Origin: an uncultured Actinomycetota bacterium
GTDB lineage: Bacteria > Actinomycetota > UBA4738 > HRBIN12
Length of the DNA: 64,000 bases
Assembly (NCBI GenBank): GCA_963702405.1
Contig: CAVPCM010000011.1
Span: 19,764 to 83,763 of the forward strand
Direction of reading: 5' to 3'
Position numbers and translations under genes: made by a program. Below the pieces are notes generated by a model. The model did no database searches, was not told the origin of the DNA, and saw only the letters and a list, made by a program, of their open reading frames with translations. Each line of letters begins with the position of its first letter. Position 1 is the first letter of the stretch. This document shows positions 21,942 to 28,059 of the stretch, piece after piece.

Positions 21942-22016
21942 CGGGCCGTGGCGCAGCTTGGTTAGCGCGTCTGACTGGGGGTCAGAAGGTCGCCGGTTCG
22001 AATCCGGCCGGCCCGA
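21942..22016 (+). tRNA. tRNA-Pro (anticodon GGG)
   Basis: Cloverleaf folded by hand. 7-bp acceptor stem CGGGCCG/CGGCCCG, anticodon loop CTGGGGG with GGG at 34-36, T-loop GTTCGAAT. CCA is not encoded. Confidence 0.85.
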
Positions 22017-22040
22017 CGGATGAGAGGGACGACGGAGACG

Positions 22041-22619
22041 ATGCCGGCATCCTCCGCCATCGTCACCGTCCCCAACATCCTGTCGTTCGCCCGCATCGCC
22101 TCGATCCCTCTGTTCTGCTGGCTGGCGGCGAACGAGCGGACGAGGGTCTGGGGGATCCTGCTGTTCGCCGTGGTGGTCAGCACCGATTGGGTCGACGGGT
22201 ACATCGCGCGTCGGACGGGCCAGGTCACCGAGCTCGGACGCATCCTCGATCCGGTCGCCGACCGGCTCGCCATCGCGGCCGGCCTCCTGACGTTCGCGAT
22301 CGCGGGGATCTTCCCGTTCTGGGCGGCGCTGTTGATCCTGGTTCGCGACGTCGTCGTCGTGCTCGGCGGCGCGGTGCTGCTCTGGGGGAGGAACATCCGG
22401 GTGGAGGTTCGCGGGATCGGCAAGATCGCCACCTTCTCGTTGATGGCCGCCATCGCGTGGATCGCCTGGGGCAACGCCGGCGGTCCGCTCGGCGATGTCC
22501 TCCTCGTCGGGGGATGGCTCGCGTACGTGGTGGGGATCGTCGAGTACTACCTCGCGGCCGGCCTCTACGCGATCGACGTCCGCGACGCCCTCGCGGAGCG
22601 AGGCATGCTGGAGGAGTAA
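22041..22619 (+). CDS. CDP-alcohol phosphatidyltransferase (PgsA-like)
   Basis: DGYIAR-x8-G-x3-DPVADR motif and multi-TM topology. The ATG at 22020 is only 3 nt after the tRNA, so 22041 is preferred. Confidence 0.75.
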   Translation: MPASSAIVTVPNILSFARIASIPLFCWLAANERTRVWGILLFAVVVSTDWVDGYIARRTGQVTELGRILDPVADRLAIAAGLLTFAIAGIFPFWAALLILVRDVVVVLGGAVLLWGRNIRVEVRGIGKIATFSLMAAIAWIAWGNAGGPLGDVLLVGGWLAYVVGIVEYYLAAGLYAIDVRDALAERGMLEE

Positions 22620-22694
22620 GTTCACGCCGGGCCCGCGGTGGTTGGTCATCACCGACCCGGGCGTGCCACGGCGAACCGAGAACGGGAGGAACGA

Positions 22695-23078
22695 GTGAAG
22701 TACCCGGAAGACCTGAGGTATTCGCGAGAGCACGAGTGGGCGCGATCGGAGAACGGACGCGTCCGCGTGGGCATCACCGACTTCGCCCAGGACGCGCTGG
22801 GCGACGTCGTGTACGTCGACCTCCCCGAGCCGGGCACGCAGGTGACGAGCGGGCAGGCGTTCGGGGAGGTTGAATCGACGAAATCCGTCAGCGACGTGTT
22901 CGCACCGGTCTCCGGAACGATCGTGGAACGCAACGCCGCCCTCGAAGAGCATCCGGAGCTCGTGAACGAGCATCCCTACGGGGACGGCTGGCTGGTCGCG
23001 ATCGACCCGGCGGACCCGGCCGACGTCGACGCGTTGCTCGATGCTGCGGCGTACCAGGAGCACATCTCGAGCTCCTGA
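22695..23078 (+). CDS. gcvH: glycine cleavage system H protein
   Basis: Lipoyl-lysine motif EVESTKSVSD. GTG start with GGGAGG RBS. Confidence 0.9.
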   Translation: MKYPEDLRYSREHEWARSENGRVRVGITDFAQDALGDVVYVDLPEPGTQVTSGQAFGEVESTKSVSDVFAPVSGTIVERNAALEEHPELVNEHPYGDGWLVAIDPADPADVDALLDAAAYQEHISSS

Positions 23079-23115
23079 GCCGCGGACCCTCGACGCTCGA
23101 CTGATACTCCAGCGC

Positions 23116-23173
23116 AGGTCGAGGGTCACGGCCGAGCCAGGTCGAGGGTGACCGGAGGAGCGAGGTCGAGGGT
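23116..23173 (+). repeat. three direct repeats (C)AGGTCGAGGGT at 23-24 bp spacing upstream of the FHA (garA-like) gene
   Basis: Read directly at 23116-26, 23139-49 and 23163-73. Confidence 0.6.
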
Positions 23174-23188
23174 ACGGCGAAGGCTCGG

Positions 23189-23217
23189 TTGACCCTCCTC
23201 ACCTGCTGCGATAACGT
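23189..23217 (+). promoter_or_regulatory. candidate sigma-A-like promoter TTGACC-17-TAACGT for the FHA gene
   Basis: Read directly. The repeats lie immediately upstream of the -35. Confidence 0.4.
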
Positions 23218-23293
23218 CCCCGACGCGTCGAGGTCGACGGTTGCCCACAACATCGAACGTCGACACCAGGTGGGGGAAGAGGGGAAGCAGACG

Positions 23294-23752
23294 GTGTTCT
23301 GTACTCGTTGTGGACATCCGAACCGCGACGACGCGCGCTTCTGCGCGGAGTGCGGAGCTCCCCTTCAGGACGACTCGACGGTCACGCTCACCCCGGTCGA
23401 GCCCGAAGAAGAGGAGAACGTCGAGTTCCCCTTCCCCGAAGACGAGCTCGAACCCGGGCAGGCGCTCCTTCAGGTCAAGCGTGGTCCCAACGCAGGGTCG
23501 ACGTTCCTCCTCGACACAGACACGTCCACGATCGGGCGGAACACGGAGAGCACGGTGTTCCTCGACGACATCACCGTCTCCCGTGCGCACGCCACGTTCG
23601 AGCGCAAAGGTGCGGAGTGGTTCGTCCGCGATGCGGGGAGCCTCAACGGGACCTACGTGAACGGCGAACAGGTCGACGAGACGAAGTTGGCCACGGGCGA
23701 TCAGGTCCAGATCGGACGCTTCAGGCTGACGTTCTTCCAGGCAGGGGGATGA
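23294..23752 (+). CDS. FHA-domain protein with N-terminal zinc ribbon (GarA/OdhI positional homologue)
   Basis: CTRCGHPN...CAECG zinc ribbon. FHA core GR..ES.V.LDD..VSR.HA. Sits between gcvH and a MerR gene as garA does in mycobacteria. GTG start after a GGGGAAGAGGGGAAG RBS. Confidence 0.75.
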   Translation: MFCTRCGHPNRDDARFCAECGAPLQDDSTVTLTPVEPEEEENVEFPFPEDELEPGQALLQVKRGPNAGSTFLLDTDTSTIGRNTESTVFLDDITVSRAHATFERKGAEWFVRDAGSLNGTYVNGEQVDETKLATGDQVQIGRFRLTFFQAGG

Positions 23753-23753
23753 G

Positions 23754-24485
23754 GTGGAGATGGCCGGCACGCGCAACTACCAGTCGATCGGTGAGGTCCT
23801 CGTGTCCGTGAAGACGGAGTTCCCGGACATCACGATCTCGAAGATCCGGTTCCTCGAGGCCGAGGGCCTGATCGAGCCCGAGCGGACGCCGTCCGGCTAC
23901 CGCAAGTTCTACCGCCACGACGTCGACCGGCTGAAGTCGATCCTCCGGCTCCAGCGCGACGAGTACCTCCCCTTGAAGGTGATCAAGGAACGGCTGCTCC
24001 ATCAGGACGCGGGGGTCGACGACGTCGGGGCCGTAGCCGACGGAGAAGCCGCTGACGGCGACGACGTATCGGCGACCGACGAGATCGCGGAAGCGCCCAC
24101 CGGGCTGCAGATGTCGCTCGAGGAGATGTCCACCGCCACCGGGATCGATCGCGACCGGATCAAAGAGCTCGAAGCGTTCGGGATCATCTCCACGCATGGC
24201 CCCGAGGGAGCCCGCTATTACGACGGGGACGACTTCATCATCCTGTCGATCGTGAAGGACTTCTTCCGCTACGGGATCGAGGCTCGTCATCTCACGATGT
24301 ACAAGCACTTCGCGGACCGGGAGTCGTCCTTCTTCGATCAGATCGTGGCGCCGACCCTCCGGCAGAAGAACCCGGACGCTCGCCGCACCGCGGCCCAAAC
24401 CCTGGCGAACCTGTCGTCCACGTCGCGGAAGTTCAAGCAAGCGCTCCTGCGGACGAACCTGCGCGACAACCTTCGTAGCGCGTGA
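23754..24485 (+). CDS. MerR-family transcriptional regulator (Rv1828-like)
   Basis: N-terminal HTH (YQSIGEVLVSVKTEFPDITISKIRFLEAEGLIEPERTPSGYRKF). Confidence 0.8.
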   Translation: MEMAGTRNYQSIGEVLVSVKTEFPDITISKIRFLEAEGLIEPERTPSGYRKFYRHDVDRLKSILRLQRDEYLPLKVIKERLLHQDAGVDDVGAVADGEAADGDDVSATDEIAEAPTGLQMSLEEMSTATGIDRDRIKELEAFGIISTHGPEGARYYDGDDFIILSIVKDFFRYGIEARHLTMYKHFADRESSFFDQIVAPTLRQKNPDARRTAAQTLANLSSTSRKFKQALLRTNLRDNLRSA

Positions 24486-25753
24486 AGCGGAGGGCCGCCG
24501 CCGGCGCGGCCGCCTTCCTGCCACTCCTGCTCCTGATCGCCCAGGCGTCGTGGCTGCACGCGATCGGCGCCCCGGCCGCGCCACCCCCGACGCCGGTCCC
24601 GCCCAACGGATCGCCGTCCCCGTTCGTGTCGCGGCTCACTACGCCCGCCGACCCGGTCCCGGTCCCACGGATCGATGCCCCGGCCCTCGTCCTGATGGAT
24701 CTCGCCGCCGGGCAGGTCCTGTATCAGCGAGCCGCAGCGTCGGCGCGACCGGTCGCGAGCCTGACGAAGCTGATGACGGCGTTGCTCGTCCTCGAAGCCG
24801 AGGAGGGGCGTCTGGATCGAACCGTCCGTGTCGATCCCGACGCCGTCTTCGGCCGGGGGCAGTACGGGGCGGGGTCGTCGCTCGGCCTCCGGTCGGGCGA
24901 GCGGGTCTCGGTCCGGGGGTTGCTCGCCGGCCTGCTCCTCGGGTCCGCGAACGACGCCGCGGAGGCGCTCGCCATCGAGGAGTCGGGGAGCGTCGGCGCG
25001 TTCGTCACGGCGATGAACGCGCGAGCGCGTGCCCTCGGGATGGCGGAGACGACCTTCGCGTCCCCCCACGGCTTGGACGACCGAGGTCTGTCGTCGGCAT
25101 CCGACATGCTCACGTTGCTGCGCCAAGTTCGGAGGCACACGGCGTTCCGGCGGCTCGTGGCCAGCAGGCTCGTCGTCGTCCGCTCGGACTCGGCGCCGCC
25201 ACGGCGGATCCAGAATCGCAACGTGATGCTGTGGCTGTATCCGGGGGCCTCCGGGGTGAAGACCGGGTCCACGGCGGGCGCGGGGTACTGCCTCGTCGCG
25301 ACCGCCGAACGCGGCGGGCGAGAGCTCGCTGCCGTCGTCCTCGGCGGTCGTGACGAGGTGTTCTCCGAGGCGGCCGCGCTCCTGAACCACGGGTTCGCGG
25401 CGTACCAGGTGCGGACCTTGGTCTCCGAAGGAGCGCCGCTCGGGAGCGTTCGGGTGCGTGGCGGCACCGTGCCCGTCGTGGCGGGGGAGGAGCTGGAGGC
25501 GCTCGTGCGCGTGCAGGACACCGGGGGGGTCGATCGGATCGTCACGGCAGCGAGGTCGGTCGCGTACCCTCCCGCGAGCGGCTCCGAAGTGGGGACCCTC
25601 CGCGTGACCTCGGGCGGAGCCGTTCTCGGGCAGGTGCCCGTCCTGGTTGCGGACCTCCCTCCGCCGGAGGAGCCACGCGGCTCCTGGTGGGGCCGGGCGG
25701 TCGGCGCCGTCTCGTCCGCGCTGGGCGGCGTGATCGCCGATCTCATGGACTGA
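24482..25753 (+). CDS. dacB: D-alanyl-D-alanine carboxypeptidase (S11 PBP)
   Basis: SLTK (SxxK), SAND (SxN) and KTGST (KTG) motifs. Signal peptide. Confidence 0.85.
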   Translation: MKRRAAAGAAAFLPLLLLIAQASWLHAIGAPAAPPPTPVPPNGSPSPFVSRLTTPADPVPVPRIDAPALVLMDLAAGQVLYQRAAASARPVASLTKLMTALLVLEAEEGRLDRTVRVDPDAVFGRGQYGAGSSLGLRSGERVSVRGLLAGLLLGSANDAAEALAIEESGSVGAFVTAMNARARALGMAETTFASPHGLDDRGLSSASDMLTLLRQVRRHTAFRRLVASRLVVVRSDSAPPRRIQNRNVMLWLYPGASGVKTGSTAGAGYCLVATAERGGRELAAVVLGGRDEVFSEAAALLNHGFAAYQVRTLVSEGAPLGSVRVRGGTVPVVAGEELEALVRVQDTGGVDRIVTAARSVAYPPASGSEVGTLRVTSGGAVLGQVPVLVADLPPPEEPRGSWWGRAVGAVSSALGGVIADLMD

Positions 25754-26939: not shown

Positions 26940-26954
26940 GTCCGAGGTCGAGGA

Positions 26955-27440
26955 TCAGCCGTAGAAGAAGACGGTCACCCAGAGCAGGCCGTCGTCGTCC
27001 CGGTAGGTGCCGAGCGCGACGCGCCGGAAGCGCTCGTTGATGATGTTGGCGCGGTGGGGGGAGGACTTCATGAACGCTTCCTGCAGATCCGCGACCGACC
27101 CACCGGTGACGCCGACGTTCTCGCCCCACGTCGACCAGCTGACGCCCTTGAGGTAGTAGCTGGCGGGATCATGGGTGTGGAAGAGCTTGCCGAACCCTCC
27201 GGTGCCATCCGGCGTGGTCGCCATCTTGAGGCTGTGCTTCCGAGCGAGTCTCGAGATCTGCCAGTGGATGCCCACGCGTCGGATGTCATGGTGCACCCGA
27301 CTGTTGTTGGTGGCTCGGTACATCCGGGCCCTGGGCGAGAGCGTCGCGGCGCCCGCCGAAGGGGGAGCGAGCGCGGTCAGGCCCGTCATGAGAGCCGACA
27401 CGAGGGCGATCCTCGTGAGTGCGGTTCGGGTTCGTGTCAT
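26955..27440 (-). CDS. secreted CAP/SCP (PR-1-like) domain protein, paralog 1
   Basis: Signal peptide. GENVG...EAFMKSSPHRANI...FRRVALG...LWVTVFFYG. Confidence 0.75.
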   Translation of the reverse strand: MTRTRTALTRIALVSALMTGLTALAPPSAGAATLSPRARMYRATNNSRVHHDIRRVGIHWQISRLARKHSLKMATTPDGTGGFGKLFHTHDPASYYLKGVSWSTWGENVGVTGGSVADLQEAFMKSSPHRANIINERFRRVALGTYRDDDGLLWVTVFFYG

Positions 27441-27624: not shown

Positions 27625-28059
27625 ATGACGAGCGAAGAAGGGTTCCGGGTACCGGACGTCTGTCGCATCGTCGGCATCAGCTATCGGCAGCTCGACTATT
27701 GGGCCAGGACGGAGCTCGTGACGCCCTCGATCCGCGATGCGCGAGGATCGGGGACGCAGCGGTTGTACTCCTTCCAGGACCTCGTCTCGTTGAAGGTCAT
27801 CAAGAAGCTCCTGGACACGGGGGTGTCCCTCCAGCGGGTCCGCAAGGCCGTCGAGCACCTGCATTCGATGAAGCGACCCACGCACCGCGTCACCTTGATG
27901 TCGGACGGCCGTGGGGTCTACGAGGCCCACTCGGCGGAGGCCGTGATCGACCTCCTCCAGAAGGGACAGGGCGTCTTCGCCATCGCGCTCGACCAGGTCT
28001 GGAGCGACCTGGAGGGGACCCTCTCGAAACGCAGACGGGCGGCCGCAGGAGGGTCGTGA
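27625..28059 (+). CDS. MerR-family transcriptional regulator (Rv1830-like)
   Basis: HTH (FRVPDVCRIVGISYRQLDYWARTELV). GGGGAG RBS. Confidence 0.8.
   Translation: MTSEEGFRVPDVCRIVGISYRQLDYWARTELVTPSIRDARGSGTQRLYSFQDLVSLKVIKKLLDTGVSLQRVRKAVEHLHSMKRPTHRVTLMSDGRGVYEAHSAEAVIDLLQKGQGVFAIALDQVWSDLEGTLSKRRRAAAGGS

Follow-up and report, generated by a model that had tools for sequence, protein, structure and literature searches.

FtsR (Cg1631 in Corynebacterium glutamicum, Rv1828 in Mycobacterium tuberculosis, and SCO1383 in Streptomyces coelicolor) is a conserved actinobacterial activator of ftsZ. Its operator, the FtsR box, was defined in C. glutamicum by chromatin affinity purification sequencing (ChAP-seq) and electrophoretic mobility shift assay (EMSA) as AACCCTAAAGTAAAGGTTGAGGGTA, a 25-bp imperfect inverted repeat, and in this organism FtsR activates ftsZ from a box located at -61 to -85 (position -73); the FtsR site at M. 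tuberculosis ftsZ reads AACtCTAAgcctAtGGTTGAGGtTt (PMC6683498). Moreover, a DNA affinity purification sequencing (DAP-seq) atlas covering 17 actinomycetes reports binding of the orthologue from Streptomyces upstream of ftsZ in 16 of them (bioRxiv 10.64898/2026.06.06.730586). The ftsR gene always follows odhI/garA, and a functional link between the two was thought possible, without evidence (PMC6683498). Here, we describe a 64-kb stretch of DNA from an uncultured Actinomycetota bacterium, referred to as a whole as the window, in which an array of three direct repeats lies within the 215-bp spacer between gcvH (22695-23078), coding for the glycine cleavage H protein, and a gene coding for a protein with a zinc ribbon and an FHA domain (23294-23752), which is followed by an orthologue of ftsR (23754-24485). 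These three genes and every element described in the gcvH-FHA spacer are given on the plus strand. Judged from the sequence, the repeats represent FtsR-box-like sites in a new arrangement and at a new target, and we place roughly even confidence in their being the binding sites of a sequence-specific protein, most likely FtsR, which would in this way control its own operon (odhI-like/ftsR).

The locus shares with the FtsR box of ftsZ the sequence of one arm (GGTCGAGGGT here and GGTTGAGGGT in the right arm of the box, with 9 of 10 bases alike, among ACCCT/AGGGT arms), the presence beside the array of a gene coding for an FtsR orthologue with an identical recognition helix, the placement of the sites upstream of the -35 element, to be compared with -61 to -85 at C. 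glutamicum ftsZ, and the length of the unit, the 23-bp period of the repeats being the same as the 8+7+8 core of the box. Conversely, the target is here the regulator's own operon, two or three direct half-sites with a 23-bp period take the place of one imperfect palindrome, the left arm is not conserved, and extra copies of the motif lie over the -35 element and in the start region.

The array consists of three exact copies of AGGTCGAGGGT at 23116-23126, 23139-23149, and 23163-23173, with start-to-start distances of 23 and 24 bp, against 0.10 copies expected from dinucleotide-preserving shuffles, none of which (0/100) reaches three. An independent call by Tandem Repeats Finder delimits an array at 23111-23177 with 2.9 copies and 80% matches. 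The initial annotation of this DNA had reported the 11-mer three times at a 23-24 bp period, directly upstream of a TTGACC-17-TAACGT promoter-like element and about 120-180 bp before the FHA gene, and all of this is borne out: the core of the third repeat ends 15 bp ahead of the -35 hexamer, the promoter pattern TTGACC-N17-TAACGT (23189-23217) occurs once in the window, and 121-178 bp separate the repeats from the downstream GTG start at 23294. As for its proposal to look for the 11-mer elsewhere, the 64-kb window holds no further exact copy on either strand. In both the window and its relatives, the repeat unit can be written as GGTCGAGGGT(C/G)A, present in two or three copies 23 bp apart. 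When a position weight matrix (PWM) is built solely from relatives with FHA identity <94%, the three repeats of the window rank first, second, and third of all positions on both strands (128 kb). Specifically, the distal repeat 1, GGTCGAGGGTCA (23117-23128), scores 19.2 bits, the best value of the window, corresponds to the -70 position of three-copy relatives, and also forms the 3' arm of a hairpin; repeat 2, GGTCGAGGGTGA (23140-23151), scores 18.5 bits and corresponds to position -47; and the promoter-proximal repeat 3, GGTCGAGGGTAC (23164-23175), scores 15.9 bits and corresponds to position -24. In the dispersed-repeat and regulon search of the window, the other near-matches (16315, 18789, 19426, 29561, 41763, and others) are coding and unrepeated, and only the one at 26945-26958 is intergenic. 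This site, AGGTCGAGGATCAG, is the fourth-best PWM match of the window (15.4 bits) and sits in the 15-bp gap that separates the stop of a BFN-domain gene (26939) from the end of a CAP-domain gene converging on it from the minus strand (26955-27440).

The promoter that follows the array comprises the -35 hexamer TTGACC (23189-23194), at least 90% conserved in relatives, and, 17 bp past it, the -10 hexamer TAACGT (23212-23217), where close relatives share GCGATAACGT without variation. From promoter geometry only, transcription is predicted to start at 23222-23225, 5-8 nt past the -10 element. A generic promoter and terminator scan makes no call here, which does not count against the promoter because its thresholds are centred on Escherichia coli and TAACGT matches TATAAT at 3 of 6 positions. 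The actinobacterial -10 pattern is TANNNT, and TAACGT fits it. The 17-bp spacer between the -35 and -10 elements is found in 54/54 sequences with FHA identity >=78% and measures 18 bp in the more distant loci L066 and L067 (L-numbers denote individual relative loci), while the distant relatives L022, L023, and L064 carry TTGAAC-17-TAGGCT in the same place. The substitution of one hexamer pair for the other is how a real -35/-10 pair evolves, and with a -35 of the form TTGACN, a spacer of 16-18 bp, and a -10 of the form TANNNT, the predicted promoter is of the sigma-A (sigma-70-type) actinobacterial type. Relative to the predicted start, the centres of the repeat cores fall at about -55, -79, and -102. 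Further copies of the motif lie closer to the start. The octamer TGACCCTC (23190-23197), inside the proposed -35 element, is a partial inverted copy complementary to GAGGGTCA of repeat 1. Just past the predicted start, a conserved block in an operator-like position (23226-23245) holds the near-copy GGTCGACGGT (23232-23241), at about +9 to +17, and the repeat search recognizes there a fourth direct copy with one mismatch (23229-23241, 92%). The consensus of this block, CGCATCGAGGTCSACGGTT, is kept just past the -10 element in relatives, and in L022, L023, L064, L066, and L067 it contains a perfect GTCGAGGGT.

The conservation of the array was assessed on the gcvH-FHA spacers of 53 distinct relatives (54 sequences with the window), anchored on the -35 hexamer. 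Homologues of the FHA protein number in the thousands, and the close ones (78-98% identity) all derive from uncultured soil Actinomycetota. In this set, the core GTCGAGGGT occupies the fixed positions -24 and -47, and in 33/54 sequences also -70, from the -35 element, with a period of exactly 23 bp in the relatives; position -24 is filled in nearly all relatives and position -47 in every relative with FHA identity >=78%, and the cores of the window, at -24, -48, and -71, show one extra base compared with them. Three copies are present in 33 sequences and two in 21, the latter lacking exactly one 23-bp unit, including L004, with an FHA protein that has 95% identity to that of the window. The core columns have a mean pairwise identity of about 0.82, against 0.35-0.38 in the inter-core spacers, and this difference indicates that selection maintains the cores and the lengths of the spacers, not the spacer sequences. 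Moreover, the motif is confined to the gcvH-FHA spacer across 55 loci totalling 264 kb. In L066 and L067, whose FHA proteins are 70% identical to that of the window, the promoter is kept, the upstream array is absent, and two overlapping perfect copies, GTCGAGGGTTGAGGGTCA, lie just past the -10 element; since these loci have the downstream copies without the upstream array, the operator-like downstream copy may be the older element.

The adjacent regulator is the best of the candidate binders named in the initial annotation. The ftsR product is recognized by the NCBIfam equivalog model TF_FtsR_Actino (NF050798) with 229.8 bits against a cutoff of 150, and its C-terminal domain matches the structure of Rv1828 (PDB 5YDC; E 5e-8). 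The recognition helix, TISKIRFLEAEGL, is the same as in Rv1828, whose N-terminus was recovered from an M. tuberculosis contig. The two proteins have in common the helix-turn-helix segment FPD(V/I)TISKIRFLEAEGL as well as the wing SGYR.F, so the same DNA specificity is expected. The locus L003 bears the exact arm GGTTGAGGGT, and 10-mers that match the FtsR box as well as the repeats do, at any offset and on either strand, number 23 among 63,990 in the window (0.036%), 7 of them within the array. The full geometry of the box is found at the distal site of L019, where CCCCTCGA-N7-TCGAGGGT reproduces exactly the 8+7+8 arrangement, and in L062 with an imperfect left arm (6/8). From sequence similarity, adjacency, and recognition-helix identity, we infer that the repeats are putative FtsR sites. 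The second MerR gene nearby (27625-28059, Rv1830/McdR-like) was considered as the source of the binder and rejected, the published McdR motif, AATnACAnnnnTGTnATT, being unrelated.

MerR genes are often autoregulated, and the initial annotation had mentioned a MerR-type activator site among its options. This proposal stands in that the adjacent MerR-family protein is the FtsR orthologue and matches the repeats at 9 of 10 arm bases, and it does not stand as far as a canonical operator is concerned. Operators such as those of MerR, CueR, and SoxR likewise belong to regulators of the family of the candidate, and their dyad is placed within an over-long -35/-10 spacer of 19-20 bp, whereas here the spacer has the optimal length of 17 bp, contains no dyad, and the sites are outside it. 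A precedent for the arrangement, to be taken as a lead only, is offered by the small MerR-like protein BldC from Streptomyces, which reportedly binds head to tail on direct repeats: it is a winged-helix protein of the MerR type that acts cooperatively on variable numbers of direct repeats, although it lacks the C-terminal domain of FtsR and recognizes an AT-rich motif with a shorter period.

Several observations weigh against FtsR as the binder, or against the array as a site of the known kind. FtsR is a dimer and was described on an inverted repeat, while in the window and in most relatives the units are direct half-sites that do not form the 25-bp inverted repeat; the columns corresponding to the left arm are about 35% identical and unconserved, save for an A two bases past the core, and the inverted pair that does exist is spaced in most relatives by N18 (N7 plus 11), not by N7. 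The geometry ACCCT-N13-AGGGT, looked for across the window, returns one weak match, which is coding (41763). A period of 23 bp amounts to 2.2 helical turns, so that each site is somewhat rotated about the helix axis relative to its neighbour. In C. glutamicum, the odhI/ftsR promoter is not among the nine top ChAP-seq peaks (PMC6683498). The loci of Acidimicrobiia and Coriobacteriia have no array, with a gcvH-FHA gap of only about 30-40 bp in Acidimicrobiales, and the gcvH-garA spacer of M. tuberculosis (239 bp, L098:2047-2285) has neither an array nor an FtsR box, its only related element being a single GGTCGCGGGT placed 35 nt past the gcvH stop. Lastly, read-through from gcvH would place the repeats on an RNA. 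The array is thus a clade-specific arrangement, as far as these loci tell, and the expectation of the initial annotation that the repeats be conserved upstream of orthologous genes holds within the clade (53 relatives) and fails at M. tuberculosis garA, in Acidimicrobiia, and in Coriobacteriia. Separately, the Rv1828 gene is split into two gene calls in both M. tuberculosis assemblies examined (Logan; L098, L099). Moreover, in a metagenome-assembled genome of Nitriliruptorales, the gcvH-FHA spacer (about 320 bp) contains another tandem array (L027:2733-2851), in which GTGGCCCAGG(GT) recurs every 10-12 bp for about 10.7 copies, several units including CAGGGT; in this other bacterial class, it may be an array of independent origin at the same promoter position.

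The main alternative to FtsR is that the array is a transcription-factor cluster for a different binder, such as a response regulator, another winged-helix protein, or a nucleoid-associated protein, with a coincidental likeness to the FtsR box; we regard this as possible and somewhat unlikely. The conservation and the register of the repeats are silent on the identity of the binder, direct repeats lacking a left arm are at odds with the box as published, which is palindromic, and no FtsR peak is reported at odhI in C. glutamicum. On the other hand, few 10-mers of the window (about 3e-4) match the FtsR arm at 9/10 bases, only two candidates, namely, the neighbouring MerR regulators, were compared a priori and the other one mismatches, the recognition helix of FtsR is the same as in Rv1828, and the geometry of the box itself is present in L019 and, less exactly, in L062. 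Among other binders, response regulators of the OmpR/PhoB type had been put forward in the initial annotation, and this assignment is not supported. OmpR/PhoB-type sites consist of 6-7-bp half-sites repeating every 10-11 bp or so; such boxes (pho boxes, GlnR and MtrA sites) are likewise direct repeats upstream of or abutting the -35 element, whereas here a core of 10-12 bp recurs every 23 bp (23/24 bp in the window). To our knowledge, the sequence of the array resembles no OmpR/PhoB-type motif.

The distal repeat may have a second role. Upstream of the array, at 23085-23101, two overlapping inverted copies of the motif are found, GACCCTCGAC (23085-23094, perfect) and ACGCTCGAC (23093-23101, one mismatch), in a region that reads CTCGACCCTCGACC in most relatives. 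In the inverted-repeat search, GACCCTCGAC is the perfect 10-nt inverted partner of 23118-23127 in repeat 1, and the two together delimit a hairpin or palindrome (23085-23127) that begins 7 nt past the gcvH stop. The corresponding RNA (23079-23130) folds with -27.3 kcal/mol (z -4.0), and the equivalent of L052 with -33.3 kcal/mol (z -7.3). In the relatives, the inverted copy always begins 25 nt ahead of the most distal direct copy, whichever that is, and L019 and L062 retain the inverted copy with a much shorter loop. The hairpin could plausibly serve gcvH as an insulator or as a terminator without a tail: tail-less (I-shaped) terminators of Actinobacteria are likewise strong GC-rich hairpins a few nucleotides past the stop with no U-tract, although here the 3' arm is a member of a phased repeat family that reaches the next promoter, and T21 and A24 of the loop are invariant. 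The loop (23104-23107, alignment columns 21-24) combines these two invariant bases with the near-invariant C20 and C26 (GCTNCAGC), a constraint that exceeds the needs of a loop, and could be a degenerate motif arm or the centre of a palindrome.

This hairpin is the basis of the explanation that the element acts as RNA, that is, as a terminator or 3' stabilizer hairpin of gcvH whose extra repeats would be alternative 3' arms or leader sequence tuning read-through into the FHA gene, which appears quite improbable to us. It is a strong structure (-27 to -33 kcal/mol, z -4 to -7), 7 nt past a stop codon, that L019 and L062 retain despite a changed loop length, and its inner stem shows slight covariation (0.089 against 0.057 in shuffled alignments). 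Nevertheless, the 10 outer pairs hardly vary and hence give no evidence of covariation, the inner pairs are mostly unpaired or weakly covarying, and A.C mismatches (49) outnumber G.U pairs (25), so that selection for a plus-strand RNA is not indicated. RNAalifold detects no consensus structure beyond column-shuffled controls at repeats 2 and 3 on either strand, and nothing above such controls from -50 to +60, across the promoter block, or in the 5' untranslated region (UTR) on either strand, the 5' UTR being no more stable than its shuffles (z +0.34). No T-run follows the hairpin, the scan for intrinsic terminators gives 0 terminator-like sites, and an Rfam scan of 22000-24500 with E up to 10 returns only chance matches to CRISPR and miRNA families. 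The explanation by RNA can hold for the hairpin alone, leaving the array unexplained, while the fixed distance of each copy to the conserved -35/-10 pair is what a function at the DNA level predicts. The weak RNA evidence and the fixed register to the -35 element point to an array that works at the DNA level, by protein binding, with the hairpin perhaps a further function of the distal unit. The regulator-site reading of the initial annotation is therefore sustained as regards conserved cores in register with a conserved promoter and the lack of an RNA structure accounting for the array, and is not sustained as regards the specific role of an activator site.

That the repeats are a neutral tandem duplication, a functionless slippage product of the terminator arm, is scarcely credible, for although the copy number is two or three among relatives and the spacers of units 2 and 3 of the window show some similarity (86% over 21 nt), a neutral duplication would decay uniformly, whereas the cores are about 82-95% identical at fixed positions while the spacers have fallen to about 35%, and the relatives are not assembly duplicates of one genome, as their FHA identities (78-98%) and differing spacers attest.

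With FtsR as the preferred binder, a mechanism can be tentatively outlined. Each unit would have the length of the 23-bp core of the FtsR box and retain only its right arm, and two or three FtsR dimers would be packed side by side on these strong half-sites. By recruiting the RNA polymerase, FtsR on the upstream units could activate the promoter, as it does at C. glutamicum ftsZ from -61 to -85. At high levels of FtsR, the weaker copies over the -35 element and downstream of the start, which lie in repressor positions, would be filled as well, and the promoter would be shut in a feedback control. With motif copies upstream, over the -35 element, and past the -10 element, the array may thus either activate or repress. 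The inverted copy and the distal repeat would probably also form the 3' hairpin of gcvH, parting two transcription units. A bolder version of this proposal combines head-to-tail binding of FtsR, a dimer hitherto known only from a palindromic box at ftsZ, on direct half-sites with a 23-bp period, autoregulation of an operon for the OdhI-like 2-oxoglutarate-switch protein and the carboxypeptidase, a direct wiring of cell division to the switch of central metabolism, gain and loss of units as a dial of expression, and a distal unit that doubles as a terminator arm; taken as a whole, it is rather unlikely.

The genes around the array are arranged in an order known from other Actinobacteria. The order gcvH-FHA-MerR is kept in the relatives and on an M. 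tuberculosis contig, its core being the actinobacterial neighbourhood gcvH-garA/odhI-Rv1828-Rv1829-Rv1830, which was confirmed on that contig, and the synteny gcvH-FHA-ftsR-...-BFN-MerR2 expected for a GarA/OdhI locus is present. gcvH (Pfam GCV_H, E 1e-43) ends with a stop codon at 23076-23078, and it is preceded by an ORF coding for a CDP-alcohol phosphatidyltransferase (pgsA-like, 22020-22619), which itself begins 2 nt past a tRNA-Pro(GGG) gene (21942-22017). The FHA gene codes for a protein of 152 aa whose FHA domain is C-terminal (Pfam FHA, Zn_Ribbon_1), and its start is most plausibly the GTG at 23294, located 7 nt behind the Shine-Dalgarno-like GAGGGGAA (23279-23286), which is kept in relatives. 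A longer ORF from the TTG at 23189 (187 aa), which many gene calls in databases adopt, was dismissed, the distance from the -35 element to the start varying between 105, 106, and 107 nt among relatives. Public gene calls for many FHA orthologues are of 171-197 aa, hence starting inside the promoter or the 5' UTR, and in light of the same variation these N-terminal extensions are annotation artefacts. The gene had been called garA-like, a label that is appropriate for the FHA domain and the synteny and not for the rest of the protein. The NCBIfam model of OdhI matches residues 45-149 only and, at 144 bits, stays below its cutoff of 200, while at the N-terminus the protein carries a CxxC...CxxC zinc ribbon (Pfam PF13240) where GarA and OdhI have the phospho-threonine (ETTS) segment; for these two reasons, the protein is not taken as a GarA/OdhI equivalog and is GarA/OdhI-like solely in its FHA domain and position. 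A short Thr-rich stretch, STVTLTP, follows the zinc ribbon.

Downstream, ftsR begins 1 nt after the stop of the FHA gene, and an ORF for a peptidase S11 (24482-25753; Peptidase_S11 and PBP5_C, D-Ala-D-Ala carboxypeptidase) overlaps its stop codon (GTGA). Hence, the predicted operon under the array promoter contains the OdhI-like FHA protein, FtsR, and probably the D-Ala-D-Ala carboxypeptidase (dacB-like), and a cell-wall carboxypeptidase and the regulator of cell division appear to share a transcript. Further downstream are hpt, the BFN-domain gene, and the second MerR gene (27625-28059). No tubulin signature indicative of ftsZ is found in the 64-kb window.

If the array is indeed bound by FtsR, an FtsR-type array on the promoter of both genes would supply the link between odhI/garA and ftsR. 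It would also be the first indication that FtsR is autoregulated and would suggest a non-palindromic binding mode for this protein, and the array, with its three strong candidate sites, offers a natural substrate for FtsR biochemistry. If, instead, the binder is not FtsR, the locus would still represent, for an uncultured lineage from soil, an unusually clean array of sites that is fixed in register with its promoter while its copy number varies.

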